Source of the DNA: a virus
Taxonomy: Duplodnaviria; Heunggongvirae; Uroviricota; Caudoviricetes
DNA: 27,998 nucleotides
Virus record (IMG/VR): IMGVR_UViG_640753024_000003
Coordinates: 1 to 27,998 of that record
Strand: one strand, 5' to 3'
The position numbers and the translations under genes were made by a program. The notes under the pieces are model-generated. The model searched no databases. It had not been told where the DNA came from and saw nothing but the letters and a program-made list of their open reading frames with translations. Below, piece after piece: positions 1-23,015 of the stretch (position 1 is its first letter; every line of letters begins with the position of its first letter).

Positions 1-1284
1 TTACTTCTTCGCCTCTGCAACCACTTTACTACCCACGCCGCGGTTATTGTATTCCCACATGCGGTTGTAGTTAGTGTCATTCAGATTGCGCTGTATTTCG
101 TCGTTATCATCTACGCTGCCGGTATTACCCGCAAACGGACGATTAGAGATCACCGCATCGGCCCACGGTTTAGCCGTGTTAAAACCTTCGTTGATGGCGC
201 TATCACGGATCACCACCTGACCGTTGGTATTGGCATCAACATCCAGCGAGCGGCCCAGTTGCGCCACACCATCACCGAAAGCATTGAAACGGCTGTTTAC
301 GGCGAGGAAACCGTAGTAAATGTTGGACAGCGTAGCCGGTGCAAACACATACGCTTCTTGCTGAGTACGTGAGTTCACCACGCGGAATTCGGTGTTATCG
401 AACACCACTGCGCCGCGACCAGAAACGATATCCACATCCCCTTCAATGTAGCTGTTGGTCACCAGCGTACGCGGCTGACGGTTGGTTTCCAGACGGTTCT
501 GCACACCGCTGTTGGTGACAAAGAAGGTGTTCTGACGACCGAGAATGTTAACGTTGTTAATCTGTACCTGGTCACCATCAGTACGCAGTGCCACCGCCGG
601 ATGGTTACCTGCATCTACGCTATCGCCCAGCGTGTTTTCGATGGTCAGATTTTGCAGTTGCAGGCCATTGTTTTGTGACCAGAAGACCGCAGAGCAGAGA
701 ACACCGATACTGTCGCTGCGTTTGCTCTGGCAGCTATCGTACATATACCACGCTGGTTTACCTGGCATATATTTGCCGCGCGGGTTGACGTCGTGACGCC
801 AGTCGGCAGGGCTCATGCCACCATCAAGGGAAAGCCCAATCTTCACATCAATCGGTTTTTCACCTGTACCGTACAGAGTAATTCCACCCGGAGCGGCAGG
901 GACATATACCGTTCCCTGATACTCACCAGGCATCACGGCAATATACTGGCGCTTGTTGGTACGCTTGATAATTGCCGCATCTACCGCCGCCTGAATCGTG
1001 GTATGCGTTACACCTTGAGTGCCCGCCGGGCCGACAACAAAGTCAGGTTGCGCAGGCAGGGTAATCGGGGAAGGATTCCACGCTGCAGCACCTGGTGTCA
1101 GGGATGCAAAATAGTGTTGAGCATCGAAATTCTGCGCTTCTTTTGCCGACAGAATCGGGCGAGAAGAGGTACCAGGCGCGGTTTGATCAGAAGGACGTTG
1201 ATCGGGCGGGGTTGAGCTACAGGCGGTCAGCGTCACGCCAAAAGCCAATGCCAGCGCCAGACGGGAAACTGAAAATGTGTTCAC
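1..1284 (-). CDS. ybhC: YbhC-type outer-membrane lipoprotein (pectinesterase-like), host gene on the gal side of attB-lambda
   Basis: Full-length 427-aa ORF; N-terminal signal peptide with lipobox (LTAC); recognised as YbhC from the translation; lies immediately outside the att core. Confidence 0.85.
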   Translation of the reverse strand: MNTFSVSRLALALAFGVTLTACSSTPPDQRPSDQTAPGTSSRPILSAKEAQNFDAQHYFASLTPGAAAWNPSPITLPAQPDFVVGPAGTQGVTHTTIQAAVDAAIIKRTNKRQYIAVMPGEYQGTVYVPAAPGGITLYGTGEKPIDVKIGLSLDGGMSPADWRHDVNPRGKYMPGKPAWYMYDSCQSKRSDSIGVLCSAVFWSQNNGLQLQNLTIENTLGDSVDAGNHPAVALRTDGDQVQINNVNILGRQNTFFVTNSGVQNRLETNRQPRTLVTNSYIEGDVDIVSGRGAVVFDNTEFRVVNSRTQQEAYVFAPATLSNIYYGFLAVNSRFNAFGDGVAQLGRSLDVDANTNGQVVIRDSAINEGFNTAKPWADAVISNRPFAGNTGSVDDNDEIQRNLNDTNYNRMWEYNNRGVGSKVVAEAKK

Positions 1285-6742: not shown

Positions 6743-7033
6743 TTAGTGATTCAGGCCGTTACCGCGTCCGTCGAGAAAAACTTCCACGAGCAAATCACGG
6801 GTATAAGTGCGCTCGATGCCGCGATGCAGATAAAGCCGTCCGCGTAAATTAGCTGATGCAGTCCAGGTACCATCTTTGTGTTTGACCAGCATTCCTGGCA
6901 TGACCGCACCTCGATTAACGGTCTGCGTTCCATAATGTTGATGAACCATAAAAACTCCTGCCCGTAAGCTGGGCTGCTGAACATATAGAGACTTCTGCGC
7001 GTATTCAGGCGGTGGATGGCCGCCGGTTGTCAT
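6743..7033 (-). CDS. Hypothetical protein in the kil/cIII position downstream of pL
   Basis: 96-codon ORF; internal Met at 6949 is preceded by GGAG with 6-nt spacing and may be the true start (68 aa); no recognisable motif; not an N-family sequence. Confidence 0.4.
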
Positions 7034-7234
7034 AACTAAGCCGCCTCGTTGAAGCGACTAAGGTATGAAATGTTGAGTTAATTTCAGCTGGTCACACCGA
7101 CGTTCACGCGTCCGTTTCACCCCTCGCACTCCCCGAAGCCTGCTGAAATTCAAACTGCGGATCTAAGCGGTCATCGCAACGGTGAATCAGGTAGTTGCCG
7201 TATCGTTGTGTTGTTGCGATGAACTTATTTAAAA

Positions 7235-7300
7235 CTATAGTTGTTTTATCGTCAACAACAAAAGTTGTTTTATTGGTTGTTTTAGATATAACTGGTTGTA
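7235..7300 (-). promoter_or_regulatory. Putative OL operators and leftward promoter pL
   Basis: Minus-strand TTGACG-17 nt-TTAAAT promoter-like hexamers; 17-bp element aaaactatagttgtttt and palindrome aacaacaaaagttgtt built from the same AACAAC/GTTGTT half-sites found in OR. Confidence 0.5.
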
Positions 7301-8269: not shown

Positions 8270-8325
8270 AAACGAAAATGGTTGTTGACTAAAAACAACC
8301 ATAGTTTTAATCTTGATTCAAATTA
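8270..8325. promoter_or_regulatory. Putative OR operators with pR and pRM
   Basis: Plus-strand TTGACT-17 nt-TAATCT upstream of cro; palindrome ggttgtt-N7-aacaacc and 17-bp element aaaacaaccatagtttt, which is the reverse complement of the OL element apart from one base. Confidence 0.55.
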
Positions 8326-8340
8326 ACCACGGAGGTTGTT

Positions 8341-8571
8341 ATGAACCCAGCTATCAAAACAGCGATCAATATCGTTGGTTCACAAAAGAAACTGGGCGCT
8401 GCTTGCGAAGTTTCACAGCAGGCCGTCTATAAGTGGCTTCACAACAAAGCAAAGGTATCCCCTGAACATGTCGGCAGCATTGTTACGGCTACTGGTGGAG
8501 TAGTGAAGGCATACCAGATTCGCCCGGATCTTCCGAAGTTGTTTCCACACACCGAAAAGAACGCAGCTTAA
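8341..8571 (+). CDS. cro: Cro-type HTH repressor
   Basis: 76-aa ORF with HTH (QKKLGAACEVSQQAVYKW), GGAGG ribosome-binding site, divergent from cI. Confidence 0.75.
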   Translation: MNPAIKTAINIVGSQKKLGAACEVSQQAVYKWLHNKAKVSPEHVGSIVTATGGVVKAYQIRPDLPKLFPHTEKNAA

Positions 8572-8583
8572 ATTTCCATTTCA

Positions 8584-8596
8584 CGCTCTTTAACAA
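8584..8596 (+). promoter_or_regulatory. boxA-like element (nutR position) between cro and cII-like gene
   Basis: CGCTCTTTAACAA matches the boxA consensus (GCTCTTTAACAA) known from rrn/lambdoid antitermination sites; no obvious boxB hairpin follows. Confidence 0.45.
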
Positions 8597-8640
8597 TAAG
8601 CAATCAACTTAACAGTCAATTCAAACTAAAGGAGTCAATT

Positions 8641-9180
8641 ATGCAACCACTTACATACCAACAGACTAGCGGATTTAGCCCGACTGCGGTGATAAATCGT
8701 TCTCAAACAAAACAGGTGCCAGGCCACGAAAAAATCCGTGATGCCGTCCGCGCCTGGTCGGCTGTAGATAATCAGGATGTCGTTGCCACACTCATTGTGA
8801 ATGAGTATCGGGAGCAGGGCGGCGGCACCATCGATTTCCCTGATGATGTCAGCCGTGCACGCCAGAAGCTGTTCCGCTTCCTCGATAACAAATTCGATTC
8901 TGAAAAATACCGAAATAACGTGCGTGAACTGACCCCGGTAATTCTGGCGGTACTACCGCTGGAATATCGCGGTTACCTGGTTGAGCAGGATAGCTTCATG
9001 GCTAGGTTGGCTGAAATGGAAAAGGAACTCAGTGAGGCAAAACAGGCTGTCATTCTCAACGCACCACGCCACCAGAAACTGAAGGAAATTAGTGAAGGTA
9101 TTGTGTCGATGTTTCGTGTGGACCCAGATCTGGCTGGTCCATTGATGGCGATGGTTACTACCATGCTGGGGGCGATATGA
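8641..9180 (+). CDS. CII-like regulatory protein (CP76-type), in the cII position
   Basis: 179-aa ORF between cro and O; family assignment from memory of the phage CII (CP76) family, not verified. Confidence 0.45.
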   Translation: MQPLTYQQTSGFSPTAVINRSQTKQVPGHEKIRDAVRAWSAVDNQDVVATLIVNEYREQGGGTIDFPDDVSRARQKLFRFLDNKFDSEKYRNNVRELTPVILAVLPLEYRGYLVEQDSFMARLAEMEKELSEAKQAVILNAPRHQKLKEISEGIVSMFRVDPDLAGPLMAMVTTMLGAI

Positions 9181-9266
9181 CAGGTTCAGAAATGGCGAAA
9201 GCCGGTCTGCTGGAACAGAACCGACTTTCAGGTGCAAATCGTAACACACTCATTGCGGGAGGAATT

Positions 9267-10196
9267 ATGGCAAACACTGCTGAGATATTCAATTTTCCAG
9301 TGCCGGATGCGGCACAAAAGGAGCCGCGCGTGGCAGATCTCGATGATGGTTATACGCGCATTGCAAATGAGTTGCTGGAAGCTGTGATGCTGGCCGGATT
9401 AACACAGCACCAGCTTCTGGTCTTTCTGGCTGTCATGCGCAAAACATATGGCTTTAATAAAAAACTGGATTGGGTTAGCAACGAGCAACTTTCCGAATTA
9501 ACCGGGATATTGCCGCACAAGTGTTCTGCTGCAAAAAGTGTTCTGGTAAAGCGTGGGATTTTTATTCAGAGCGGGCGGAATACCGGCATTAATAATGTGG
9601 TCAGTGAATGGTCAACATTACCCGAATCAGGTAAGAAAAATAAAGTTTACCTGAAAGAGGTAAATTTACCTGAATCAGGTAAAAAAAGTTTACCCAAATC
9701 AGGTAAAGGCGTTTACCCGAATCAGGTAAACACAAAAGACAAACTAACAAAAGACAATATAAAACCTTTTTCGTCCGAGAATTCTGGCGAATCCTCTGAC
9801 CAACCAGAAAACGATCTTCCTGTGGTGAAACCGGATGCTGCAATTCAGAGCGGCAGCAAGTGGGGGACAGCAGAAGACCTGACCGCCGCAGAGTGGATGT
9901 TTGACATGGTGAAGACCATCGCGCCATCAGCCAGAAAACCGAATTTTGCAGGGTGGGCTAACGATATCCGCCTGATGCGTGAACGTGACGGACGTAACCA
10001 CCGCGACATGTGTGTGCTGTTCCGCTGGGCATGCCAGGACAACTTCTGGTCCGGTAACGTGCTAAGTCCGGCCAAACTCCGCGACAAGTGGACCCAGCTC
10101 GAAATCAACCGAAACAAGCAACAGGCTGGCGTGATAGCCGGCAAACCAAAACTCGACCTGACGAACACTGACTGGATTTACGGGGTGGAGCTATGA
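9267..10196 (+). CDS. O: Replication initiator O (non-lambda N-terminal iteron-binding domain, lambda-like C-terminal P-interaction domain)
   Basis: Start placed at MANTAEIFNF (GGAGG ribosome-binding site; in-frame alternative start at 9177); C-terminal region (SKWGTAEDLTAAEWMFDMVKTIAPSARKPNFAGWANDIRLMRERDGRNHRDMCVLFRWACQDNFWSGNVLSPAKLRDKWTQLEINRNKQQAG) recognised as lambda O; iterons inside the gene. Confidence 0.85.
   Translation: MANTAEIFNFPVPDAAQKEPRVADLDDGYTRIANELLEAVMLAGLTQHQLLVFLAVMRKTYGFNKKLDWVSNEQLSELTGILPHKCSAAKSVLVKRGIFIQSGRNTGINNVVSEWSTLPESGKKNKVYLKEVNLPESGKKSLPKSGKGVYPNQVNTKDKLTKDNIKPFSSENSGESSDQPENDLPVVKPDAAIQSGSKWGTAEDLTAAEWMFDMVKTIAPSARKPNFAGWANDIRLMRERDGRNHRDMCVLFRWACQDNFWSGNVLSPAKLRDKWTQLEINRNKQQAGVIAGKPKLDLTNTDWIYGVEL
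9618..9775 (+). repeat. Replication origin: five ~19-bp iterons (TTTACCYGAATCAGGTAAA-like) followed by an A-rich unwinding region
   Basis: Direct repeats at about 9618, 9647, 9665, 9688 and 9711, each internally palindromic, then A-rich tract 9730-9775; embedded in the O coding region as in lambda ori. Confidence 0.8.
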
Positions 10197-10894
10197 AAAA
10201 CATCGCCGCACAGATGGTTAACTTTGACTGTGAGCAGATGCGCCGGATCGCCAACAACATGCCGGAACAGTACGACGAAAAGCCACAGGTACAGCAGGTA
10301 GCGCAGATCATCAACGGTGTGTTCAGCCAGTTACTGGCAACTTTCCCGGCGAGCCTGGCTAACCGTGACCAGAATGAACTGAACGAAATCCGCCGCCAGT
10401 GGGTTCTGGCTTTCCGGGAAAACGGGATCACCACAATGGAACAGGTTAACGCTGGAATGCGCGTAGCCCGTCGGCAGAATCGACCATTCCTGCCATCACC
10501 CGGGCAGTTTGTCGCCTGGTGCCGGGAAGAAGCATCTGTTAACGCCGGGCTGCCAAACGTCAGCGAGCTGGTTGATATGGTTTACGAGTATTGCCGGAAG
10601 CGTGGCCTGTATCCGGATGCAGAGTCTTATCCGTGGAAATCGAACGCGCATTACTGGTTGGTTACCAACTTGTACCAGAACATGCGGGCCAATGCGCTGA
10701 CTGACGCGGAATTACGGCGCAAGGCTGCCGATGAACTGACCTGTATGACAGCGCGAATTAACCGTGGTGAGACGATACCTGAACCAGTAAAACAACTTCC
10801 TGTTATGGGCGGTAGACCTCTAAATCGTGCACAGGCTCTGGCGAAGATCGCAGAAATTAAAGCTAAGTTCGGACTGAAAGGAGCAAGTGTATGA
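10193..10894 (+). CDS. P: Replication protein P (DnaB helicase loader)
   Basis: 233-aa ORF MKNIAAQMVNFDCEQMRRIANNMPEQYDEKPQVQQVAQIINGVFSQLLATFPASLANRDQ..., recognised as lambda P. Confidence 0.95.
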   Translation: MKNIAAQMVNFDCEQMRRIANNMPEQYDEKPQVQQVAQIINGVFSQLLATFPASLANRDQNELNEIRRQWVLAFRENGITTMEQVNAGMRVARRQNRPFLPSPGQFVAWCREEASVNAGLPNVSELVDMVYEYCRKRGLYPDAESYPWKSNAHYWLVTNLYQNMRANALTDAELRRKAADELTCMTARINRGETIPEPVKQLPVMGGRPLNRAQALAKIAEIKAKFGLKGASV

Positions 10895-11193
10895 CGGGCA
10901 AAGAGGCAATTATTCATTACCTGGGGACGCATAAGAGCTTCTGTGCACAGGACGTTGCCGCGGTAACAGGCGCAACCGTAACCAGCATAAATCAGGCTGC
11001 GGCTAAAATGGCGCGGGCAGGAATCCTGGTCGTTGATGGTAAGGTCTGGCGAACGGTGTATTACCGGTTCGCTACCAGAGAAGAACGGGAAGGAAAGGTG
11101 AGCACGAATCTGATTTTTAAGGAGTGTCGCCAGAGTGCCGCGATGAAACGCGTATTGAGGGTATATAAAAGAACATCAATGGGTACACAATGA
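10891..11193 (+). CDS. ren: Ren (Rex exclusion protection protein)
   Basis: 100-aa ORF MTGKEAIIHYLGTHKSFCAQDVAAVTGATVTSINQAAAKMARAGILVVDGKVWRTVYYRFATREEREGK, recognised as lambda Ren. Confidence 0.9.
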   Translation: MTGKEAIIHYLGTHKSFCAQDVAAVTGATVTSINQAAAKMARAGILVVDGKVWRTVYYRFATREEREGKVSTNLIFKECRQSAAMKRVLRVYKRTSMGTQ

Positions 11194-11260
11194 TGAAACA
11201 GGTGAGTTGATTTCAAACTGTAGTACAATTCTCTCCAGTTTGAACAGGAAAGAATATGCT

Positions 11261-11593
11261 ATGAACCCTTATATTTATCTTGGTGGTGCAATACTTGCAG
11301 AGGTCATTGGTACAACCTTAATGAAGTTTTCAGAAGGTTTTACACGGTTATGGCCATCTGTTGGTACAATTATTTGTTATTGTGCATCATTCTGGTTATT
11401 AGCTCAGACGCTGGCTTATATTCCTACAGGGATTGCTTATGCTATCTGGTCAGGAGTCGGTATTGTCCTGATTAGCTTACTGTCATGGGGATTTTTCGGC
11501 CAACGGCTGGACCTGCCAGCCATTATAGGCATGATGTTGATTTGTGCCGGTGTGTTGGTTATTAATTTATTGTCACGAAGCACACCACATTAA
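11261..11593 (+). CDS. emrE: SMR-family multidrug efflux transporter EmrE
   Basis: 110 aa from MNPYIYLGGAILAEVIGTTLMKFSEGFTRLWPSVGTIICY..., recognised as EmrE; 4 TM helices; AT-rich cargo gene after ren as in DLP12. Confidence 0.95.
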   Translation: MNPYIYLGGAILAEVIGTTLMKFSEGFTRLWPSVGTIICYCASFWLLAQTLAYIPTGIAYAIWSGVGIVLISLLSWGFFGQRLDLPAIIGMMLICAGVLVINLLSRSTPH

Positions 11594-11623
11594 AAATAAT
11601 TTGTTTTTAAACGACTAAAATAT

Positions 11624-11664
11624 GGAGGCTCTTATATTTATATGAGCCTCGTTTTATGCTTTTT
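11624..11664 (+). terminator. Candidate intrinsic terminator after emrE
   Basis: Stem gaggctc/gagcctc with AT-rich loop followed by gttttatgcttttt. Confidence 0.45.
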
Positions 11665-11848
11665 GTTAATGTCTTTATTTTTTATGTATTCTTTTGTGCT
11701 TTCAAGATTATGGCGTGAGAAAATTGCAATACGATTATTGTTGTATATTCAAGATAATGTGACCTTAATTGTCTTTTTAAATAAAAATTAAACAAAAGTT
11801 ATATCTCACCACTAAGGTTTATAAAAGCATACGTTAGCAGGTGTCACC

Positions 11849-13375
11849 ATGAAAAAAGCCATAGCATATATGCGATTTTCATCACCAGGTCAGATGTCTG
11901 GCGACTCATTGAACCGACAGAGAAGACTTATTGCTGAATGGTTAAAGGTAAATAGTAATTATTATCTTGATACCATAACATATGAAGATTTAGGATTAAG
12001 TGCATTCAAAGGAAAGCATGCACAATCAGGAGCTTTTTCGGAATTTTTAGATGCTATAGAGCATGGTTATATATTGCCAGGAACTACATTGTTAGTTGAA
12101 AGTTTGGACAGACTTTCAAGAGAAAAAGTCGGTGAAGCGATTGAGCGTCTGAAATTGATTTTGAATCACGGTATTGATGTTATAACTCTTTGCGATAATA
12201 CAGTCTATAACATTGACTCTTTGAATGATCCATATTCATTAATAAAAGCCATACTTATAGCACAAAGGGCAAATGAAGAAAGCGAGATAAAGTCAAGTCG
12301 GGTTAAATTATCATGGAAGAAAAAACGGCAGGATGCACTGGAGTCAGGCACGATTATGACGGCGTCTTGTCCGAGATGGCTCTCATTGGATGACAAAAGA
12401 ACAGCTTTTATTCCAGACCCCGACAGGGTGAAAACGATTGAGCTAATTTTTAAACTCAGGATGGAAAGGCGATCATTGAATGCAATAGCCAAGTATTTAA
12501 ATGATCATGCTGTAAAAAATTTCTCAGGCAAAGAAAGTGCATGAGGGCCTTCTGTAATTGAAAAATTATTAGCGAATAAAGCTCTGATAGGTATATGCGT
12601 ACCTTCATATCGTGCAAGAGGTAAAGGAATAAGTGAAATCGCTGGCTATTATCCCAGAGTCATATCAGATGATTTGTTTTACGCTGTGCAGGAAATTCGG
12701 TTGGCACCTTTTGGTATTAGCAATAGTAGCAAAAATCCTATGTTGATAAATCTACTTCGAACAGTTATGAAGTGCGAGGCTTGTGGTAATACCATGATTG
12801 TTCATGCGGTATCTGGAAGTTTGCATGGCTATTATGTTTGTCCGATGAGAAGACTGCATCGATGTGACAGGCCATCAATAAAGAGAGATTTGGTTGATTA
12901 TAATATCATTAATGAGTTGCTTTTTAATTGTAGTAAAATCCAACCAGTTGAAAACAAGAAAGATGCTAATGAAACTTTAGAGTTGAAAATTATTGAGCTC
13001 CAGATGAAAATTAATAATTTAATTGCTGCATTATCTGTTGCGCCTGAAGTTACCGCTATAGCAGAAAAAATCAGAGTATTAGATAAGGAATTACGAAGGG
13101 CTTCGGTATCATTAAAAACTTTGAAGAGTAAAGCGGTGAGTTCACTTGGTGATTTTCATGCTATTGACTTAACCAGTAAAAATGGGCGAGAGCTATGTCG
13201 TACACTTGCCTATAAAACATTCGAAAAAATCATAATCAATACAGATAATAAAACCTGTGATATCTATTTTATGAATGGCATTGTTTTTAAACACTATCCT
13301 TTAATGAAAACAATATCCGCCCAGCAGGCGATAAGTACTCTCAAATATATGGTTGATGGTGAGGTTTATTTTTGA
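11849..13375 (+). pseudogene. ybcK: Large serine recombinase (YbcK-like) interrupted by a single in-frame TGA at 12542-12544
   Basis: Two same-frame ORFs (231 aa and 233 aa) separated only by one TGA; N-terminal resolvase/invertase catalytic domain (YMRFSSPGQ...SLNRQ); read-through sequence ...GKESA*GPSVIEKLLANKALIG suggests TGG(Trp) to TGA. Confidence 0.8.
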
Positions 13376-13639
13376 GTAATAATCACTTTTCCAACCGTGC
13401 TATAGTAAGAAAGTTAGGTAAGTACAATAAAAGTATCTATCCTGAACGAAGCGTCCTGAGCTATGGTTTTACTATAGGGACTGCCAATGGATGCTGGCGT
13501 TCCCGTTCTAGCAGTTCAACAATTCCCAATCACAAAACAATTCACTGATAACGAACTTTGCACACTCGCCTGGTTATGGCGAGCAGGGAATGTGATGTTA
13601 ATTGCCTACCAGAACGTTACTCATCTTCTTCAGGATGCG

Positions 13640-13647
13640 GAGCATGG
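13640..13647. repeat. Target-site duplication (left copy) GAGCATGG
   Basis: 8-bp sequence identical to 16090-16097, directly abutting the IS terminal inverted repeat. Confidence 0.85.
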
Positions 13648-13684
13648 GTAAGCGTGCAGCAAGAACCGTATTGACGGGGATGTG

Positions 13685-15223
13685 TTATTCAGTCGGCAGT
13701 GCTACGCGCCAGGGGAGCAGTTCGCCGACCCGGTTTATCGGCCAGTCGGCTATGACGTCAAGGACATAGCGGAGGTAGCTTTCTGGCTCCACTCCGTTCA
13801 GTTTGCACGTCCCGATCAGGCTGTACAGCAGCGCTCCCCGCTCTCCTCCATGATCCGAACCGAAGAACAGGTAGTTTTTGCGGCCCAGACTGACCATCCG
13901 CAACGCATTTTCAGCGATGTTATTGTCCGCCTCAGCCCAGCCATCATCTGCATAGTACGTCAGCGCCGGCCACTGGTTCAGGGCGTATGCGAACGCTTTC
14001 GCCAGTTCTGAGTGTCGCGACAGGGTTTTCATCTTTTCACGCAACCAGCTTTCCAGGGATTTCAACAGCGGTTTCGTTTTTCGCTGACGTTCAGCAAGCC
14101 GCTGCTCTGCCGGCATTCCCCTTATATCCGCCTCTATGGCGTACAACTGACCGATCTGCTCCAGGGCTTCTTCCGTCAGTGCTGACGGGATGCGGACGTG
14201 CACATCGTGGATCTTTCGGCGGGCATGAGCCCAGCAGGCAGCTTCCGTTATCCCACCATTGCGATACAGCTCGTTGAACCCGGCGTACGCATCCGCTTGC
14301 AGCACACCGCTGAAGCAGGCAAGATGAGTCTGCGGATGGATGCCTTTTCTGTCCGGGCTGTAAGCGAACCACACTGCAGGTGCCAACGCTGACCCGGCAT
14401 TGCGGTCATCACGAACATACGCCCACAACCGCCCGGTCTTCGTCTTCTTATTACCCGGCAGCAGTACCTGGACCGGGGTATCATCGGCATGGAGTTTGCC
14501 GTCAGTCATGACATAGCCATGAAGCGCCTCTTCCAGCGGAGACAGCAGCCGGCAGCATGCATCCACCCAGCCCGACAGCAGTGAACGGCTCAGCTCCACA
14601 CCTTGCCGGCCGTATATTTCTGACTGGCGATACAGCGGGGTGTGCTCTGCATACTTCGAGGTCAGCACGCGGGCCAGCAGCCCCGGTCCGGCGATACCCC
14701 GCTCGATGGGCCGCGAAGGTGCAGGTGCCTGCACGATGGCATCGCACTGAGTACAGGCATGTTTTTCCCGTACCGTCCGGATAACCCGGAAGGCACTACG
14801 CATCAACTCCAGCTGTTCGGCGGTATCCTCGCCCAGATAGCTCAGTGAACCGCCGCAGTTCGGGCAGCACGGCGCCGCAGGCAACAGTCGCTTTTCGTCA
14901 CGGGGTAGTGATTCAGGGAACGGCTTACGGGTGCGGGTCTGACGCAACGGACGCTGTACAGCCGGGTCATACACCCTACCAGTCAGCGTATCGCTCTCTT
15001 TCTGAAGCCGGTTCAGATCGGCTTCCATTTGTGCGATACGGCGGGAGACTTTTTCGGAACGACTGCCGAAGTTCATCCGGCGGAGTTTATCCAGCTGCGC
15101 CTGCAGATGGTCTATTTCGCGCTCCCAGTTGCTCAGCTTTTCCTGCAGGGCGTGGATCAGCGCTTCCTGTTCGGCCAGGCGCTGTTTCAGCAGGAAGATG
15201 TCGTCAGAAGAGATGTCGTTCAT
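13685..15223 (-). CDS. tnpC: IS66-family transposase TnpC
   Basis: 512-aa ORF with N-terminal coiled coil/leucine zipper, CxxC...CxxC zinc finger (CCPNCGG...CTQCD) and DDE-type core. Confidence 0.9.
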
Positions 15224-15272
15224 AAGCCCGTATTTTACCGGGCTTATTCTGTGACAACCAGGATAAAGAGAT

Positions 15273-15620
15273 TTACAGCATGGTCAGGGAGGTCAGCAAC
15301 CGCTTGGGCTGTCGCCAGTCGATACCTTCCAGCAGCATCGCCAGCTGCGCCTGCGTAAGGAACACTTTGCCATCACGGGCTGACGGCCAGGCGAAGCGCC
15401 CACGCTCCAGCCGTTTGGTCAGGAGGCACAGTCCGTCACCGGTGGACCACAGCAGTTTAACCTGACTGCCGCTGCGGCCCCGGAAAATGAAAACATGGCC
15501 GGACATGGGATCGTCTTTCAGCGCCGTTTGTACTTTCGCAGCCAGGCCGTTGAAGCCATTTCTCATATCGGTGATACCGGCAACCAGCCAAATTTTGGTC
15601 CCGGAAGGTAACGGGATCAT
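15273..15620 (-). CDS. tnpB: IS66 accessory protein TnpB (Orf2)
   Basis: 115-aa [33 protein letters not shown]... in the middle position of the IS66 operon, overlapping tnpA stop. Confidence 0.85.
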
Positions 15621-16018
15621 CGCTTCAGTTCCTGTATCAGCAGAGTCAGGAGCTTTTCGCTGACATTGCCATTGAAGCGGAGCGTCCCGTGCCGGAACGT
15701 TACCTCACAGCTGATACTGAGGGTTTCCGGGTCCTCTGCGAGCGATTCTGGCTGTTCGGCAGCTGCATCGAGAGTCACAGGAAGTAGCTGGGGGCTCTCT
15801 GAAGAAGGTAATAGCAGCTTTCCCTCGCGCCATTGTTGTCGCCATTTGAACAACAGATTGGCGTTAATGCCATTTTCAAGAGCAAGTTTTGAGATGGATA
15901 TCCCGGGTTCACAGGAGGCAGCAACGAGCTGCTGTTTAAATTCGGGAGGATAATTAGGGCAGCCTTTTCGCCTGCCGGGAGTCACATTTTTCTGCATATC
16001 TGACACTTTGGTTCCCAC
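15617..16018 (-). CDS. tnpA: IS66 accessory protein TnpA (Orf1, HTH)
   Basis: 133-aa ORF in the first position of the IS66 operon; ATGA overlap with tnpB. Confidence 0.8.
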   Translation of the reverse strand: MGTKVSDMQKNVTPGRRKGCPNYPPEFKQQLVAASCEPGISISKLALENGINANLLFKWRQQWREGKLLLPSSESPQLLPVTLDAAAEQPESLAEDPETLSISCEVTFRHGTLRFNGNVSEKLLTLLIQELKR

Positions 16019-16089
16019 TACTTATTTGGTGGACACCACTTTGTCTAATTTGTCAGATTCTGACCAGACGGTTCAGGCTGTACGCTTAC

Positions 16090-16097
16090 GAGCATGG
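16090..16097. repeat. Target-site duplication (right copy) GAGCATGG
   Basis: Identical to 13640-13647. Confidence 0.85.
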
Positions 16098-16278
16098 TGA
16101 GGCTGGTCACTTCACTTCCATCGAGCAAGAATATCCCCAGAGACTCAACAGAGCGCGAGCAATCCTCGCCCGAGAAACGGCACATGTAAAACTTCAGCCG
16201 TGGCAGGATGATAAGTGGAGTCAAGTATTGCCGCATTTACCTCAGAATCTGTTTCAATAAAGGCGCTAGTTAGTAAGG

Positions 16279-16304
16279 CTTCCGTCATTCTGCGATGACG
16301 GAAG
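16279..16304. other. Perfect 10-bp inverted repeat hairpin (cttccgtcat-N6-atgacggaag)
   Basis: Lies 18 nt after the stop of the IS-interrupted small ORF and 130 nt upstream of the HNH-motif gene; no U-tract. Confidence 0.4.
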
Positions 16305-16434
16305 TGCGGGCTGCGTACGGGAGAGCAATTGCATGAATAATATAAATATTCCGCTCACTCCATATAGCGATTTCTGATACAAACTTATCTATTGTGGTAA
16401 AATTATAGAAACAAACTTATAGCGTACTAACCAT

Positions 16435-17217
16435 ATGGACAATATTAATAAACACGGGCTCTCAAGAAGAATACCTGAGACAATAAAACGTCAGATAAGG
16501 CAAAGGTGCGGCTTTGGCTGTGTAATTTGTGGATTTGGATTTTATGATTATGAGCATTTTAAACCTGACTTCGTTGATGCCAAAATACATGATCCGAATG
16601 GAATGACACTTCTTTGCTCCCAATGCAATCAAAAAAGAGCTCGTGGTAGACTTTCAGCACAGACAGTGGAAATAGCTGACAGAAATCCCAAGTGCTTACA
16701 GGCTGGTTTTGCAAATGAAATGTTTGATTTTCATAATGAGCCTATAACAGTAAAATTTGCAGGAGTGACGTTTCATAACTGTCAAAATTTGATTGTAGTC
16801 AACGAACAACCCATTCTTTCTGTGAAACCTTCACCCATACCACATGGACCGATGCTTTTATCAGGAATTTTCTGTAATTCTATTGGTAAGGAGACTTTAC
16901 TGATAGATGAAAATGAATGGAAAGCTAAATCAGACAATTGGGATGTGGAGTGTACCGGCCCGCGTATAACAATACGACGTGGGCCAGGAGAGTTTGCCCT
17001 CGTTCTAAAAATGGAACCTCCAACAGGATTGATTGTTGAGCGTCTTGATATGTTGTATGAAGGGGTCAGGATGAAAGGAGATAAAGATCTGCTGGAAGTT
17101 TCGATTAATGGAGGTCCCTTGCACAGATGGCAATCATGCTCAATGTCAAATTGCCATACAGGGCTTGCGATTCAGGGCGGTATTAGAGCTGCTAATGATC
17201 CTTTGTATTGCGCCTAA
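16435..17217 (+). CDS. Hypothetical protein with N-terminal HNH/His-Me-finger nuclease-like zinc-finger motif and ~190-aa uncharacterised C-terminal domain
   Basis: 260-aa ORF; residues ~25-66 CGFGCVICGFGFYDYEHFKPDFVDAKIHDPNGMTLLCSQCNQ give Cys pairs flanking conserved His and Asn as in HNH nucleases; AT-rich codon usage; occupies the variable cargo slot between the recombinase and ybcN. Confidence 0.55.
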   Translation: MDNINKHGLSRRIPETIKRQIRQRCGFGCVICGFGFYDYEHFKPDFVDAKIHDPNGMTLLCSQCNQKRARGRLSAQTVEIADRNPKCLQAGFANEMFDFHNEPITVKFAGVTFHNCQNLIVVNEQPILSVKPSPIPHGPMLLSGIFCNSIGKETLLIDENEWKAKSDNWDVECTGPRITIRRGPGEFALVLKMEPPTGLIVERLDMLYEGVRMKGDKDLLEVSINGGPLHRWQSCSMSNCHTGLAIQGGIRAANDPLYCA

Positions 17218-17257
17218 ATCCACTAAATTGATTTTCAACAATCAACTTGCCATAATT

Positions 17258-17290
17258 AAGTCACCGGAGTTTGAACTCCTCCGGTGACTT
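17258..17290. other. Perfect 12-bp inverted repeat (aagtcaccggag-N9-ctccggtgactt)
   Basis: Strong hairpin/palindrome 41 nt after the HNH-gene stop; no flanking U-tract on either strand, so terminator versus protein-binding site is unresolved. Confidence 0.4.
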
Positions 17291-17311
17291 CTGCGCTAAA
17301 CGGGGACGTTT

Positions 17312-17413
17312 ATGCGCACATACAATCCAACCTCTCTTCTCCATTCACAGATGCAGAAATGCACCTGCGATATTTTGCATCCAGCGTTTGATCTCTGCGG
17401 AGGTGAAGCGTGA
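17312..17413 (+). CDS. ylcH: Small protein YlcH-like (33 aa)
   Basis: Hand-translated [33 protein letters not shown]; stop overlaps the GTG start of ybcN; position matches DLP12 ylcH-ybcN. Confidence 0.45.
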
Positions 17414-17865
17414 ACCTCCCACAAGATGGTATCAAATTGCATCGCGGTAACTTCACCGCTATCGGTCGGCAGATCCAGCCTTATCTGGAGGACGGCAAAT
17501 GCTTTCGCATGGTGCTTAAACCGTGGCGCGAGAGACGCAGCCTTTCCCAGAATGCACTCAGCCACATGTGGTACAGCGAAATCAGTGAATACCTCATCAG
17601 CAGGGGTAAAACGTTCGCCACTCCAGCTTGGGTAAAAGATGCTCTCAAACACACTTATCTCGGTTATGAAACCAAAGAACTGGTTGATGTCGTAACCGGT
17701 GAAATCACCACCATTCAGTCATTACGTCATACCTCCAATCTTGATACCGGAGAGATGTATGTCTTCCTGTGTAAGGTTGAAGCCTGGGCGATGAATATTG
17801 GCTGCCACCTGACTATTCCGCAGAGCTGCGAGTTCCAGCTGCTGCGCGACAAGCAGGAGGCGTAA
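17410..17865 (+). CDS. ybcN: YbcN-like nin-region protein
   Basis: 151-aa ORF, GTG start, immediately upstream of ninE with TAATG overlap; recognised as DLP12 YbcN-like. Confidence 0.75.
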
Positions 17866-18035
17866 TGGCTACACCGCTTATTCGTGTCATGAACGGACAC
17901 ATCTACAGAGTACCAAATCGTCGTAAGCGTAAGCCTGAGCTGAAACCATCCGAAATACCAACACTGCTCGGATATACCGCCAGCCTGGTTGATAAAAAAT
18001 GGTTGCGACTGGCAGCAAGGAGGAATCATGGCTGA
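17865..18035 (+). CDS. ninE: NinE
   Basis: Hand-translated 56-aa [59 protein letters not shown]; below the ORF-track size cutoff. Confidence 0.8.
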   Translation: MATPLIRVMNGHIYRVPNRRKRKPELKPSEIPTLLGYTASLVDKKWLRLAARRNHG

Positions 18036-18318
18036 TTTGAGAAAAGCAGCGCGTGGTCGGGAATGCCAGGTAAGAATCCCTGGCGTATGTAATGGCAACC
18101 CTGAAACGTCTGTACTGGCACATATCCGGCTGACTGGATTGTGCGGCACCGGTACCAAACCGCCAGACCTGATTGCCACCATTGCATGTTCTGCCTGCCA
18201 CGACGAAATCGACCGCCGCACACATTTTGTCGATGCTGCATATGCAAAAGAATGCGCGCTGGAAGGTATGGCGAGAACACAGGTTATCTGGCTGAAAGAG
18301 GGGGTTATTAAGGCGTGA
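18028..18318 (+). CDS. ybcO: YbcO-like nin-region protein (DUF1364-type, Cys-rich)
   Basis: 96 aa from [23 protein letters not shown]...; start overlaps ninE stop; upstream of rusA as in DLP12. Confidence 0.75.
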
Positions 18319-18677
18319 ATACCTACAGCATCACATTACCCTGGCCTCCGAGCAATAATCGCTATTACCGCCATAATCGCGGGCGCACGCACGTCAGCGC
18401 AGAGGGGCAGGCATACCGCGATAACGTCGCCCGAATCATTAAAAACGCAATGCTGGATATCGGCCTGGCTATGCCTGTGAAAATCCGCATTGAGTGCCAC
18501 ATGCCGGATCGCTGTCGCCGTGACCTGGATAATCTGCAAAAAGCCGCTTTTGACGCACTCACTAAAGCAGGTTTCTGGCTGGATGATGAGCTGGTCGTTG
18601 ATTACCGCGTTGTGAAGATGCCTGTTACCAAAGGTGGGAAGCTGGAACTGACCATCACTGAACTGGGAGATGAATGA
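18315..18677 (+). CDS. rusA: Holliday-junction resolvase RusA
   Basis: 120-aa [54 protein letters not shown]..., recognised as RusA. Confidence 0.95.
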
Positions 18678-18814
18678 TGTTTGAGTCTTATATGGCAGAA
18701 CGTCTTCGCCACCGCTGGATGCGCCTGCGCTTATATCGTTTCCCCGGTTCTGTTTTGACCGATTACCGAATACTGAGGAATTACGCCAAAACCCTGACAG
18801 GAGCAGGAGTATGA
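18674..18814 (+). CDS. ylcG: YlcG-like small protein (46 aa)
   Basis: Hand-translated [46 protein letters not shown]; start overlaps rusA stop. Confidence 0.55.
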
Positions 18815-18899
18815 AGTCAGAGATAACAATCAACTAATACTGTTTTATTGATTTTTGCTTGTAATTGGCGTTCTGGTCTGATTTTTGTGGAGTAAGTTG

Positions 18900-19283
18900 A
18901 TGCGTGATATTCAGATGGTTCTTGAGCGTTGGGGAGCGTGGGCGGCTAATAATCATGAAGATGTGACCTGGTCGTCCATTGCCGCCGGTTTTAAGGGATT
19001 AATTCCTTCAAAAGTAAAATCTCGCCCGCAATGTTGTGACGATGACGCGATGATCATTTGCGGGTGCATGGCCCGTCTGAAAAAGAACAACAGCGATTTG
19101 CACGATTTATTAGTAGATTATTATGTAGTCGGTATGACATTCATGTCACTGGCAGGTAAGCATTGCTGCTCTGATGGTTATATCGGGAAAAGGTTACAGA
19201 AAGCTGAGGGTATAATTGAAGGGATGTTAATGGCATTAGATATCCGGTTAGAGATGGATATCGTTGTTAATAACTCTAATTAA
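18900..19283 (+). CDS. quuD: Q-family late-gene antiterminator (QuuD-like)
   Basis: 127 aa from [22 protein letters not shown]...; Cys-rich zinc-binding region; located between nin genes and the lysis cassette. Confidence 0.85.
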
Positions 19284-19304
19284 TATGCCAATTGTTTACT
19301 AAAA

Positions 19305-19334
19305 ATTATTAAAAATGGGGCGTTGAGACGCCCC
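19305..19334 (-). terminator. Intrinsic terminator (minus strand) for the porin transcript; further hairpins at 19400-19423 and 19431-19447
   Basis: Stem ggggcgt/acgcccc with loop tgag; on the minus strand followed by atttttaataattttt. Confidence 0.45.
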
Positions 19335-19471
19335 CAAAAATAAAGGGTAATATATAACAGAAGGTTTATATAGTTAGAAGCAAGGTTGTGCTCCTAAAGG
19401 AAGTGGCTTGAGGGAGCCACTTATATGTTGGGGAGGCAAAGCCTCCCGCAACATATCTTTTAGTAATCAAA

Positions 19472-20554
19472 TTAGAACTGGTAAACCATACCTACAGCAA
19501 CGATATCATCGGTAGCAACGCCAGATGCTTTCGTGAAATCGCTCTTATCAATCAGGTTGATTTTGTAGTCAACAAAAGTGGACATATTTTTGTTGAAGTA
19601 ATAGGTTGCACCTACATCAACATATTCAACCAGGTCCTGATCACCCCAAACACCCAAGTCTTTTCCTTTAGAATGCAGGTAAGCAACGGATGGACGCAGG
19701 CCGAAGTCGAACTGATATTGTGCAACAGCTTCGAAGTTTTGTGCTTTGTTGGCAATATGGTTATTACCAAAAACAGTCATGTTCTGGGTTTCAGAATAGG
19801 TGGTGGCCAGATAGATGTTGTTCGCATCATATTTCAGACCAGCTGCCCATACTTCAGCATTTTGACCAGAAGCATTCAGACCGTTGTTACCGTAGATAAC
19901 CTGATTATTAGTGCGATCAGATTTAGCATAGGTTGCACCCACGCCGAATCCTTCATACTCATAAGTAGTTGAGAAACCGAAACCATCGCCATTAGCTTCA
20001 GTTACTTCATTTCGGTCATTTTTGCCCTGATACTGAGCTGCAAAGTTCAGGCCATCAACCAGACCAAAGAAGTCGTTGTTACGATAAGTTGCAACACCTG
20101 TGGTGCGACCAGTCATGAATACATCTGTTTGGGTCCAGGTATCGCCACCGAATTCTGGCAGAACGTCAGTCCACGCACCGATGTCGTATGCTACACCGTA
20201 GTTACGGCCGTAATCGATTGAGCCGTAGTCACCGAATTTCAGGCCTGCAAATGCAAGACGGGTTTTGTCTTTGGAGGAACCTTGAGATTCAGCGCGGTTG
20301 CCTTTGAATTCATATTCCCACTGACCGAAACCAGTCAGTTGATCGTTGATTTGGGTTTCACCTTTGAAGCCAAGACGGGCATAAGTAGTATCACCATCAT
20401 CTGCATCATTAGAGGAGAAGTAGTGCTTAGCATTAACTTTCCCGTACAGATCCAGCTTGTTACTGTCTTTATTATAAATTTCAGCTGCCTGAGCAGACAT
20501 CGCCATCAGTACTGATGCAGCTACAGCAGAAATTGCCACTGTTAATTTTTTCAT
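19472..20554 (-). CDS. nmpC: Prophage-encoded general porin of the OmpC/OmpF/NmpC family (intact)
   Basis: 360-aa ORF with signal peptide ([23 protein letters not shown]) and C-terminal VYQF beta-barrel signal; antisense between Q and the lysis genes as in DLP12. Confidence 0.9.
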
Positions 20555-21142
20555 CGTGAGCCCTTTTTTTTGAACTATTATTAAAAAATGATGTCACTGC
20601 GCGATAAATATTCATCTAATCAATGTGATTATTTCAAGATGTAAGTTTTAGTTTCTCATTTAATTTGTGAAGTAGATCTCTATTTTTATCTGAACTTTTT
20701 CTATCGAAACCTATTTATGGCTCTTATTTGAACAAAAATAAACCTATTAGCTAATTTATATTAATGGCTGTTATTTATGGGGGTTCTATAATTCGGCAGT
20801 TTAATTTAAATCAACTAAAAATAACCTCTGAAATTATTTATTGGTTATTTGTTGAGGTTTTCTTATGTATTTGTGGTGGTGTTTTGAACACTCGGTAGCA
20901 TTCTCATAAATATCATTCAGTGGTTTACGTACGTAAAAAATTGGTTATGCTGTTAAGAGTGGTTACTTCGTCACACAGCTTAAACCCGCCGTCGAGCTGG
21001 TTTTTCCATTTTTTGAGTCTCGATATTAGCTGATAACTCAATACCTGAGTTACTCACTGACTCCGAGTCTGTTACGTTTCTGCTTTTTTGCGATACGTTG
21101 TATTCCCTCAATTTACACCCGCTTTGTCTGCGAGGTGGGGTT

Positions 21143-21358
21143 ATGAAATCCATGGATAAGTTAACAACGGGTGTCGCCTATGGCACCTCAGCAGGTAGTG
21201 CCGGTTACTGGTTTTTACAGCTGCTCGATAAAGTCACGCCCTCACAGTGGGCAGCAATAGGTGTGCTGGGTAGCCTGGTATTTGGCCTGCTGACGTACCT
21301 GACAAACCTTTATTTCAAGATTAAAGAAGATAAGCGCAAGGCTGCGAGAGGTGAATAA
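21143..21358 (+). CDS. essD: Class II holin/pinholin of phage-21 S type with dual-start motif (Met1 and Met4)
   Basis: 71 aa from [71 protein letters not shown]; two TM segments; GAGGTGGGG ribosome-binding site. Confidence 0.85.
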
Positions 21359-21855
21359 TGCCTCCATCATTACGAAAAGCCGTTGCTGCTGCTATTGGTG
21401 GCGGAGCAATTGCTATAGCATCAGTGTTAATTACTGGCCCAAGTGGTAACGATGGTCTGGAAGGTGTCAGCTACATACCATACAAAGATATTGTTGGTGT
21501 ATGGACTGTATGTCACGGGCATACAGGAAAAGACATCATGCTCGGTAAAACGTATACCAAAGCAGAATGCAAAGCCCTCCTGAATAAAGACCTTGCCACG
21601 GTCGCCAGACAAATTAACCCGTACATCAAAGTCGATATACCGGAAACAATGCGCGGCGCTCTTTACTCATTCGTTTACAACGTGGGTGCTGGCAATTTCA
21701 GAACATCGACGCTTCTTCGCAAAATAAACCAGGGCGATATCAAAGGCGCATGTGATCAGCTACGTCGCTGGACATATGCTGGCGGTAAGCAATGGAAAGG
21801 TCTCATGGCTCGTCGTGAGATTGAGCGTGAAATCTGTTTGTGGGGTCAGCAATGA
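21358..21855 (+). CDS. rrrD: SAR-type endolysin (lysozyme, phage-21 R type)
   Basis: 165-aa ORF; N-terminal Gly/Ala-rich weakly hydrophobic signal-anchor-release segment ([23 protein letters not shown]) followed by lysozyme domain. Confidence 0.9.
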
Positions 21856-22289
21856 ACAGAGTAACCGCGATTATCTCCGCTCTGGTTATCTGCATCATCG
21901 TCTGCCTGTCATGGGCTGTTAATCATTACCGTGATAACGCCATGACCTACAAAGAACAGCGCGACAAAGCCACATCCATCATCGCTGACATGCAGAAGCG
22001 TCAACGTGACGTAGCAGAACTCGATGCCAGATATACAAAGGAGCTTGCTGATGCTAACGCGACTATCGAAAGTCTCCGTGATGATGTTTCTGCTGGGCGT
22101 AAGCGGCTGCAAGTCGCCGCCTCCTGTGCAAAGTCAAAGACCGGAGCCAGCAGCATGGGCGATGGAGAAAGCCCAAGACTTACAGCAGATGCTGAACTCA
22201 ATTATTACCGTCTCCGAAGTGGAATCGACAGGATAACCGCGCAGGTTAACTACCTGCAGGAGTACATCAGGACGCAATGTCTGAAATAA
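21852..22289 (+). CDS. rzpD: Inner-membrane spanin Rz
   Basis: Start at MNRVTAII overlapping endolysin stop (ATGA); N-terminal TM helix, then coiled-coil periplasmic domain. Confidence 0.8.
22051..22236 (+). CDS. rzoD: Outer-membrane lipoprotein spanin Rz1, embedded in the +1 frame of Rz
   Basis: ORF inside Rz with lipobox LLGVSGC followed by Pro-rich segment ([16 protein letters not shown]); start position approximate. Confidence 0.7.
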
Positions 22290-22493: not shown

Positions 22494-23015
22494 ATGAATA
22501 TCGTGCCACTTAATTACAAAGGTGAAATTGTCAGTTTCAACACTGATGGTTGGATCAACGTCACAGGTGTTGCTGAGAGATTTGGGAAACGCATTGATAA
22601 CTGGATGCGTTTGGCAGAAACGCTTGAATACGTTCGTGCTTTAGACGAAGCGTTGACCGGGAAAGAATCTCAAATTTTACATCCCTCACAATCGAGGTAT
22701 GTAAAAACCAGCAAGGCACGAAAGGACAGGGGTGGTGGTACGTGGCTACATCCAAAACTTTCAGTTGCATTTGCCCGTTGGTGTGATGCTCGTTTTGCTG
22801 TGTGGTGCGACCTGCACATTGATAGTCTGCTTCGCGGTGAACTGACTGAGCAGCAGAAATATGAGCAAGCATGTCGCATTCGCGATGACCGGAAATCAAA
22901 AGCCAGCAATGGGGCAAGAGAGATGGCTCGCTGGCGATGGGATAAGCCGGTTATTGAAGCAAATGTTGAGTACTGGCGCGAGCAACTGCAGTTGACTCTC
23001 GATATCGCGTGCTGA
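22494..23015 (+). CDS. KilA-N domain protein (anti-repressor/Bro-like)
   Basis: 173-aa ORF; N-terminal region (FNTDGWINVTGVAERFGKRIDNWMRLAET ... WLHPKLSVAFARWCDARF) matches the KilA-N DNA-binding domain pattern. Confidence 0.65.
   Translation: MNIVPLNYKGEIVSFNTDGWINVTGVAERFGKRIDNWMRLAETLEYVRALDEALTGKESQILHPSQSRYVKTSKARKDRGGGTWLHPKLSVAFARWCDARFAVWCDLHIDSLLRGELTEQQKYEQACRIRDDRKSKASNGAREMARWRWDKPVIEANVEYWREQLQLTLDIAC

Follow-up and report, generated by a model that had tools for sequence, protein, structure and literature searches.

The Rac prophage of E. coli K-12 has an immunity region like that of the locus described here, with an S24 or HTH repressor, a YdaS-type Cro and a YdaT-type CII, and it is likewise without N, carrying a KilR-family FtsZ inhibitor in its early-left operon behind a long untranslated stretch. 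In Rac, kilR is silenced by Rho/NusG termination (PMC5793797). In phage lambda the place right after pL is taken by N with nutL, as it is by gp24 in P22 and by Gp17 in mEp021, and our locus shares with these systems an arginine-rich stretch of similar appearance at that place. Phage HK022, with its putL and putR sites, is a lambdoid phage without N that has a conserved RNA element right after pL, and both of these traits recur in the DNA studied here.

Here, we analyse positions 7034-7240 of a 27,998-nt stretch of viral DNA, referred to throughout as the window. We consider it likely, with a probability of about 0.7, that 7034-7240 is the 5' part of the non-coding leader of a kil gene in an E. 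coli prophage lacking N, and that the arginine-rich frame found there and the TAG/CAG variation at its end are incidental. A common E. coli module is thereby documented in which the early-left operon opens with kil behind a long leader, without N, nut or put. How such N-less phages manage early transcription is already recognised as a question, and a literature search yielded no paper dealing with this leader or with their early antitermination.

The early-left operon and its first gene

The window is a lambda-like prophage that matches E. coli NCCP15648 with 100% identity over the query, and its identity to phages PhiR34_1 and Turner is 99.8% and 98.8%, respectively. The prophage module was found in 2238 of 5426 complete E. 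coli genomes (~41%), and this commonness is the sole notable aspect of an otherwise ordinary kil leader; a regulatory function of this RNA, if real, would interest phage and transcription biologists to a moderate degree. On the minus strand, cI (8302-7547) is followed by the cI terminator (7425-7408), OL/pL, the region under study, an ORF ending at 6743, gam (6667-6371), bet and exo, and on the plus strand a YdaS-type cro (8341-8571) is followed by a YdaT-type CII analogue, O and P. The longest cI ORF encodes 251 aa from ATG 8302 and the PGAP annotation of an identical genome gives 229 aa (690 nt); the shorter call is likely right, since the long ORF reaches with its 5' end into the pR/OR operators.

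A predicted pL lies in the OL operator region on the minus strand (7227-7255), composed of a -35 element TTGACG (7255-7250), a 17-nt spacer and a -10 element TTAAAT (7232-7227), and is absent from the output of a stricter promoter scan. We infer that its transcript starts at about 7220. The arrangement of pR is near-identical to that of pL, as reflected in an inverted repeat (7229-7247 / 8292-8310, 95%), and among phages of different immunity types homology begins just downstream of pL. Antisense to the start of the leader there is a promoter-like site (7214-7241, plus strand; TTGCGA, 16-nt spacer, TATAGT) pointing into OL and toward cI, which scores 9/12, and such sites occur at chance frequency. 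At the far end of the window, a full-length Rfam match to IS009 (RF02111; 27757-27955, plus strand) reached 223 bits against a gathering score of 117, and no other family was found in the window at the Rfam gathering threshold.

The preliminary description reported a 96-codon minus-strand ORF from ATG 7033-7031 to 6743, and its coordinates are right. As a gene, however, this ORF is over-extended, as the family profile and Rac KilR both align from ATG 6949, leaving a kil gene of 68 aa (6743-6949, minus strand) with a strong Shine-Dalgarno sequence AGGAG (6959-6955) 5 nt upstream of its ATG. The match to the family phrog_294 ("Kil protein for bacterial septation inhibition"; E = 1e-38) is confined to residues 20-96 of the 96-aa ORF. 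NCBIfam NF008465 ("FtsZ inhibitor protein"; E = 2e-17) aligns residues 1-68 with positions 1-70 of the 73 in its profile, with a score of 63 bits that is under the NCBI cut-off of 92 bits, and on the 128-aa version of PhiR47_2 it matches residues 61-128 only. PF27398 is precomputed on kil homologues. Rac KilR is 36% identical and its Met1 aligns with the Met at 6949. Homologues from Enterobacter, Klebsiella, Kluyvera, Citrobacter and others begin at the corresponding Met and have only the 68-aa core in common, the sequences upstream of it being unrelated, and the PGAP annotation is exactly this 207-nt gene. Judged by family membership, the downstream gene is a KilR-type inhibitor of FtsZ and cell division.

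Deposited annotations are in conflict over this region (window 6743-7129, minus strand; in relatives, L001 3575-3808 and L002 3377-3763). PhiR47_2 has a 128-aa "Kil" called from the GTG matching 7129 and PhiR34_1 a 77-aa ORF in another frame (window 6984-6751), while 4A7 and PGAP have the 68-aa gene, which is the only call that fits the family profile. Several deposited phage annotations, among them also a 96-aa ORF, thus disagree with the gene that the family supports.

With the true start of kil at 6949, the stretch from about 7220 to 6950 on the minus strand becomes a 5' leader of ~275 nt, most likely untranslated, which holds the reported feature (7034-7240) in full; a protein-family profile search of it gave no match. 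Diversity in the leader is 0.015-0.039 over 7169-6950 and 0.09 in its variable 5' part. At codon position 3 of kil it is 0.056 and at the synonymous sites of kil and gam together 0.043-0.056, so that the leader over 7169-6950 lies slightly under the synonymous sites of these genes and well over their non-synonymous sites. The leader follows six different OL/pL types, with homology common to all of them from ~7186. Since it is both less diverse than synonymous sites and shared across six operator types, the leader is, on this comparative evidence, probably functional but weakly constrained.

A stable interrupted hairpin of ~16 pairs is predicted at 7030-7068 on the minus strand (-16.5 kcal/mol, z = -5.0, with 1 of 200 shuffles as good). 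The T of the TAG discussed below (7060) falls in a predicted 1x1 internal loop, so that T or C would be equal for pairing, and ATG 7033 falls in the 3' arm. All five of the variable paired positions still pair through wobble changes, which is mild support for the hairpin. Regarded as a terminator it has a strong stem and a U-poor tail (UUAGUUAU), and it was not listed by the terminator scan. A second small hairpin (GGCGG-CCATCCA-CCGCC; 7008-7024, minus strand) travels with it, and the two together (7068-7008) reach z = -4.3, with 0 of 200 shuffles as good. The central part of the leader is moderately structured (z = -2.4).

The two-hairpin module of ~60 nt (window 7005-7070, minus strand) recurs in different early-left operons, with copies at L153 2501-2541, at about 490-560 (minus strand) of L158 and at about 2760-2840 of L147. 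In phage HK225 and in L147 the gene that follows it is kil; in both, other genes separate pL from the module, and those of L147 include an N-like gene with a canonical arginine-rich motif (ARM) and boxB. In L158 and L168 the context is a non-kil one, the module being located after an intrinsic terminator and ahead of another gene. The module has the appearance of either a mosaic joint or an autonomous RNA element of small size.

Relatives bearing the leader are all at least ~90% identical, and covariation can therefore not test RNA structure among them: the 62 distinct leaders have one-sided changes only, and in the divergent variants L155, L084 and L157 the stems predicted for the 5' and central parts are disrupted by uncompensated changes. 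A rut-like composition was considered for the leader, whose first 80 nt have a C/G ratio of only ~1.5, which decides nothing, and a permissive Rfam search of 6900-7300 gave hits at chance level only. An AgvB-like anti-sRNA, suggested by the CA-rich 5' end of the leader, was discarded as AgvB-type RNAs sit in the late region, and Pas sRNA was found not to be relevant to the leader.

The arginine-rich frame

A base-by-base check of the minus strand confirmed that a TAG at 7060-7058 is in frame with the ORF at 7033-6743. Upstream of this TAG the frame is open back to TTG 7153, which amounts to 31 codons (7058-7153, minus strand; MNFSRLRGVRGVKRTRERRCDQLKLTQHFIP) with possible starts at TTG 7153, GTG 7129 (7129-7127) and GTG 7120 (7120-7118). 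It reads ...RGVRGVKRTRERRCDQLKLTQHFIP and encodes KRTRERR. The GGAG said to precede the possible GTG starts (7132-7129) is usable for GTG 7120, 8 nt further on, but overlaps GTG 7129 and so has no Shine-Dalgarno role for that codon. The frame begins ~70-100 nt past the predicted pL start and is thereby first downstream of pL, a position that is insufficient on its own to call an N gene.

The likeness of KRTRERR to the RNA-binding motifs of lambdoid N proteins, on which the preliminary description had dwelt, is at chance level. Arginine-rich heptads, defined as having at least four R and at least five R/K, occurred 8 times in the six-frame translation of the window, versus 7.8 on average in shuffles. 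In local alignment to lambda N, 101 of 500 composition-preserving shuffles reached the score of the frame, and alignments to an N-like protein and to Nun were also no better than shuffles. Nor is the length of the frame remarkable, as an open stretch of 57-68 codons in one given frame has a prior of ~4-7% from (61/64)^n. The motif is spelled by a small CG-rich near-palindrome (ACGGACG-CGTGAA-CGTCGGT; 7096-7115, minus strand), in which CGN gives R and ACG gives T; as a hairpin it has -6.9 kcal/mol and z = -1.2, which alone is not significant. Coincidence, one of the options raised at the outset, is favoured by the evidence, and the tempting reading of a lambda-N-like arginine motif at the N position is corrected to that of a chance frame.

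The frame was followed in 116 loci (93 distinct sequences) gathered from viral contigs by an anchor in the leader, and further loci were gathered with two other anchors. Codon 7060-7058 is TAG in 33 and CAG in 60 of the 93 distinct sequences (48 versus 68 when counted by locus). The TAG allele is spread over several haplotype backgrounds, and deposited complete phage genomes carry both alleles, TAG being present in PhiR34_1, for which MG1655 is the listed host, and CAG in Turner. A 125-128-codon ORF is present in CAG variants and has been annotated as a gene in some phages. Several variants have 1-nt indels between the arginine-rich stretch and kil, and in a more divergent lineage (L155, L156) the frame hits a TAA ahead of kil.

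Over the 20 codons after GTG 7120 we counted ~9-10 non-synonymous changes versus 4 synonymous ones, and the replacements in the frame include K->E, Q->H, D->N and an R->C inside KRTRERR, the last being a C->T in the loop of the small hairpin at 7096-7115. Diversity at codon positions 1 and 2 of the frame (0.027 and 0.022) is 4-5 times that of kil (0.0055 for both positions combined). Codon position 3 is the most diverse in the frame (0.068), a value resting on two or three common sites. The relatives aligned at 7034-7240 thus have no conserved reading frame. Neither a decayed or amber-interrupted antiterminator nor a functional ARM peptide, both suggested in the preliminary description, agrees with a frame that is not conserved and whose changes are mostly non-synonymous. 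The TAG/CAG difference is most likely a neutral polymorphism at a predicted unpaired position of the hairpin at 7030-7068, and continuity of the frame with kil in CAG variants is most likely incidental.

Antitermination devices and early transcription

As described previously for this DNA, no N-type gene is found between pL and gam, where Pfam, PHROGs and NCBIfam give only the Kil/FtsZ-inhibitor match. Searches by tblastn with lambda N, HK022 Nun and two N-like proteins found nothing in the whole window, and no N, Nun or gp24 is listed in the annotated genomes of Turner, PhiR34_1, PhiR47_2 and 4A7. Hairpins of boxB type, with at least four perfect pairs and a GNRA-like loop, were not found near pL or pR, and there is no boxA in the pL transcript. 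With neither an N, Nun or gp24 gene nor a nut site of lambda or P22 type, early leftward expression cannot rely on a canonical N, and on this point the initial inference stands. The N-less state is real and an already recognised situation.

Put sites were sought in several ways. Pairwise alignment of the leader to HK022 putL and putR was weak, with 19 and 74 of 500 shuffles, respectively, being as good. Rfam has no put family and leaves the HK022 sites undetected, and 33 put variants were therefore gathered from viral contigs and, as MAFFT misaligned putL with putR, a putL-only model was built from 8 putL variants. In the controls HK022 putL scored 105 bits and putR 39 bits; the best score on the window was 10.8 bits (E = 0.43) at 22517, and none fell in the leader. 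The nut- or put-like elements for which structure prediction was initially proposed in this region were accordingly not recovered, neither as a boxB nor as an HK022-type put. The operators are all that the pL and pR sides have in common, the leader occurring just once in the window and not again downstream of pR, and genomes hold 1-2 leader copies at most. Remnants of an N region were looked for by blastn in "distant" mode among 50,697 phage records, which returned only the same leader family and a 41-nt hairpin of HK225, and by local alignment to the N region of L147, which was at chance level.

On the right side of the window, a perfect rrn-type boxA (CGCTCTTTAACAA; 8584-8596, plus strand) is positioned 13 nt after the cro stop, with no boxB following. 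An rrn boxA, whose consensus is TGCTCTTTAACAA, is a NusB/NusE-dependent element acting against Rho, and the element after cro matches the consensus GCTCTTTAACAA in the nascent RNA close to where the operon begins. Among 145 related loci, 55 have it; it is tied to this cro module alone and is missing from phages of the 4A7 type. It may provide the pR operon with Nus-factor protection against Rho that is independent of protein N.

In a scan of the leftward strand no strong intrinsic-terminator-like site was found before 4247-4229, which is beyond exo; the candidates at 6718-6701 and 6800-6784 are weak. Strong terminator-like sites occur further down the left operon at 4247-4229 and 2735-2716, both ahead of int, and these could limit transcription toward int. 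Since there is no strong terminator before 4247-4229, gam, bet and exo probably need no processive antitermination, as far as this can be inferred where Rho-dependent terminators are beyond prediction with the tools used. The early-right region (8300-22000, plus strand) contains 8 terminator-like sites versus 13.6 +/- 3.2 in dinucleotide shuffles, with no strong one on the plus strand, and this scarcity fits an N-independent layout like that of the lambda nin deletion.

Other readings of 7034-7240 have to be weighed against these observations. An N-type antiterminator, decayed or amber-interrupted, is a very improbable identity for the frame, and so is a minimal ARM peptide binding an RNA hairpin. 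The frame has the position of N in lambda, KRTRERRCDQLK resembles TRRRERRAEKQ of lambda N and GRRRERRAALQ of the N-like protein in L147, and the long ORF of the CAG variants has been taken for a gene in some phages, yet the similarity does not exceed chance and neither early transcript has a boxB hairpin for such a peptide. What follows the ARM on its C-terminal side is the Kil domain, which has no such extension in other genera; amber is a common allele, carried also by a deposited phage genome with MG1655 as listed host; R->C and K->E variants of the motif exist; and blastn against the 50,697 phage records revealed no DNA homology to any N region. By these comparative data the decayed-N idea would seem already largely refuted. 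That a short upstream ORF from the GTG or ATG at 7120, of 20 codons in TAG variants, is translated and acts in cis, shielding the leader from Rho or opening its structure, is less improbable but still unlikely. In such a model the peptide sequence itself would be irrelevant and its lack of conservation allowed, the GGAG has a plausible spacing from GTG 7120, and the first 20 codons are open in all variants seen. Moreover, of 62 distinct leader variants 5 have ATG as the start at 7120, and each of these 5 carries TAG, a pattern that may reflect lineage or may hint that an upstream ORF is translated; the combination of ATG 7120 and TAG makes a clean 20-codon ORF (MKRTRERRCDQLKSTQHFIP). Against translation, however, the Shine-Dalgarno G at 7131 is changed to A in 6 of 62 variants and the end of the frame varies widely, being the TAG at 7058, a TAA near 7005, the kil stop or a frameshift. 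A predicted long-range pairing of 7095-7075 with the kil ribosome-binding site appears in the alignment fold and not in the single-sequence MFE structure, with 86 of 500 shuffles as good, and kil homologues of other genera have short, unrelated leaders.

The remaining alternatives concern the leader RNA. It is doubtful, although about as conceivable as the translated upstream ORF, that the conserved leader core (~7186-7030) is an undescribed cis-acting RNA in a broad sense, either a put-like antiterminator by which N-less lambda-like phages would pass the terminators of the left operon or a Rho-dependent attenuator gating Kil. The narrower proposition, that the core (~7186-7070) is a new cis-acting RNA which modifies RNA polymerase, carrying pL transcripts past downstream terminators, and replaces N and nutL as a functional analogue of putL, is more doubtful again, without being as remote as a decayed N. 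The core is directly downstream of pL, as putL is, the same sequence is found behind six operator/promoter types, its central part is moderately structured, and strong terminator-like sites lie ahead of int in an operon without N. Nevertheless, it resembles put in neither sequence nor structure and is single-copy in the window, with no repeat in the pR transcript; in one lineage variant the main predicted stem is broken with no compensating change; kil operons of other genera that lack N do without the element; and its diversity is just slightly under that of synonymous sites.

Under the preferred reading, that of a non-coding kil leader, an RNA of ~275 nt would extend from the pL start at ~7220 to the kil ATG at 6949, and kil would be the first gene of a kil-gam-bet-exo early-left operon in a lambda-like prophage lacking N. 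Transcription from pL would then serve gam, bet and exo with no processive antitermination. The analogy with Rac kilR suggests that a leader so long, untranslated and in part structured would probably limit or tune the expression of toxic Kil, possibly through attenuation, through the stability of the RNA or through control over the kil ribosome-binding site. Of these, an attenuating role resembling the silencing of kilR is plausible on the same analogy.

Comparison with known systems

The likeness to lambda extends to the right side of the window, where an rrn-type boxA follows cro. In contrast to lambda N/nutL, the window has no homologous sequence, boxB, conserved frame or boxA in the pL transcript. 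The window is also distinct from HK022, in that the put covariance model finds no match, the leader has no pR-side copy and no Nun gene is present. A further arrangement is found in HK225 (L153 1290-1320), in which the pL leader has a boxA-like TGCTTTTTAACAA and is followed by a small basic protein, gp40 (…LPKKRQKPRKQAIKEAQ…), a candidate for an unannotated N analogue.

The comparison with Rac reveals differences as well, as the two leaders are unrelated in sequence and the window has kil as the first gene behind pL and the lambda genes gam, bet and exo where Rac has recET. In Rac a 5'-proximal sRNA, KilS (L152 4406-4503), is annotated in the untranslated stretch upstream of kilR; an sRNA of this type was considered for the leader and rejected, the relative position being the same and the sequences having no similarity. 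In other genera (L129, L130, L133, L142) kil homologues are located directly behind the repressor gene, again without N. Together with Rac, these loci make the N-less architecture of the early-left operon a widespread one.
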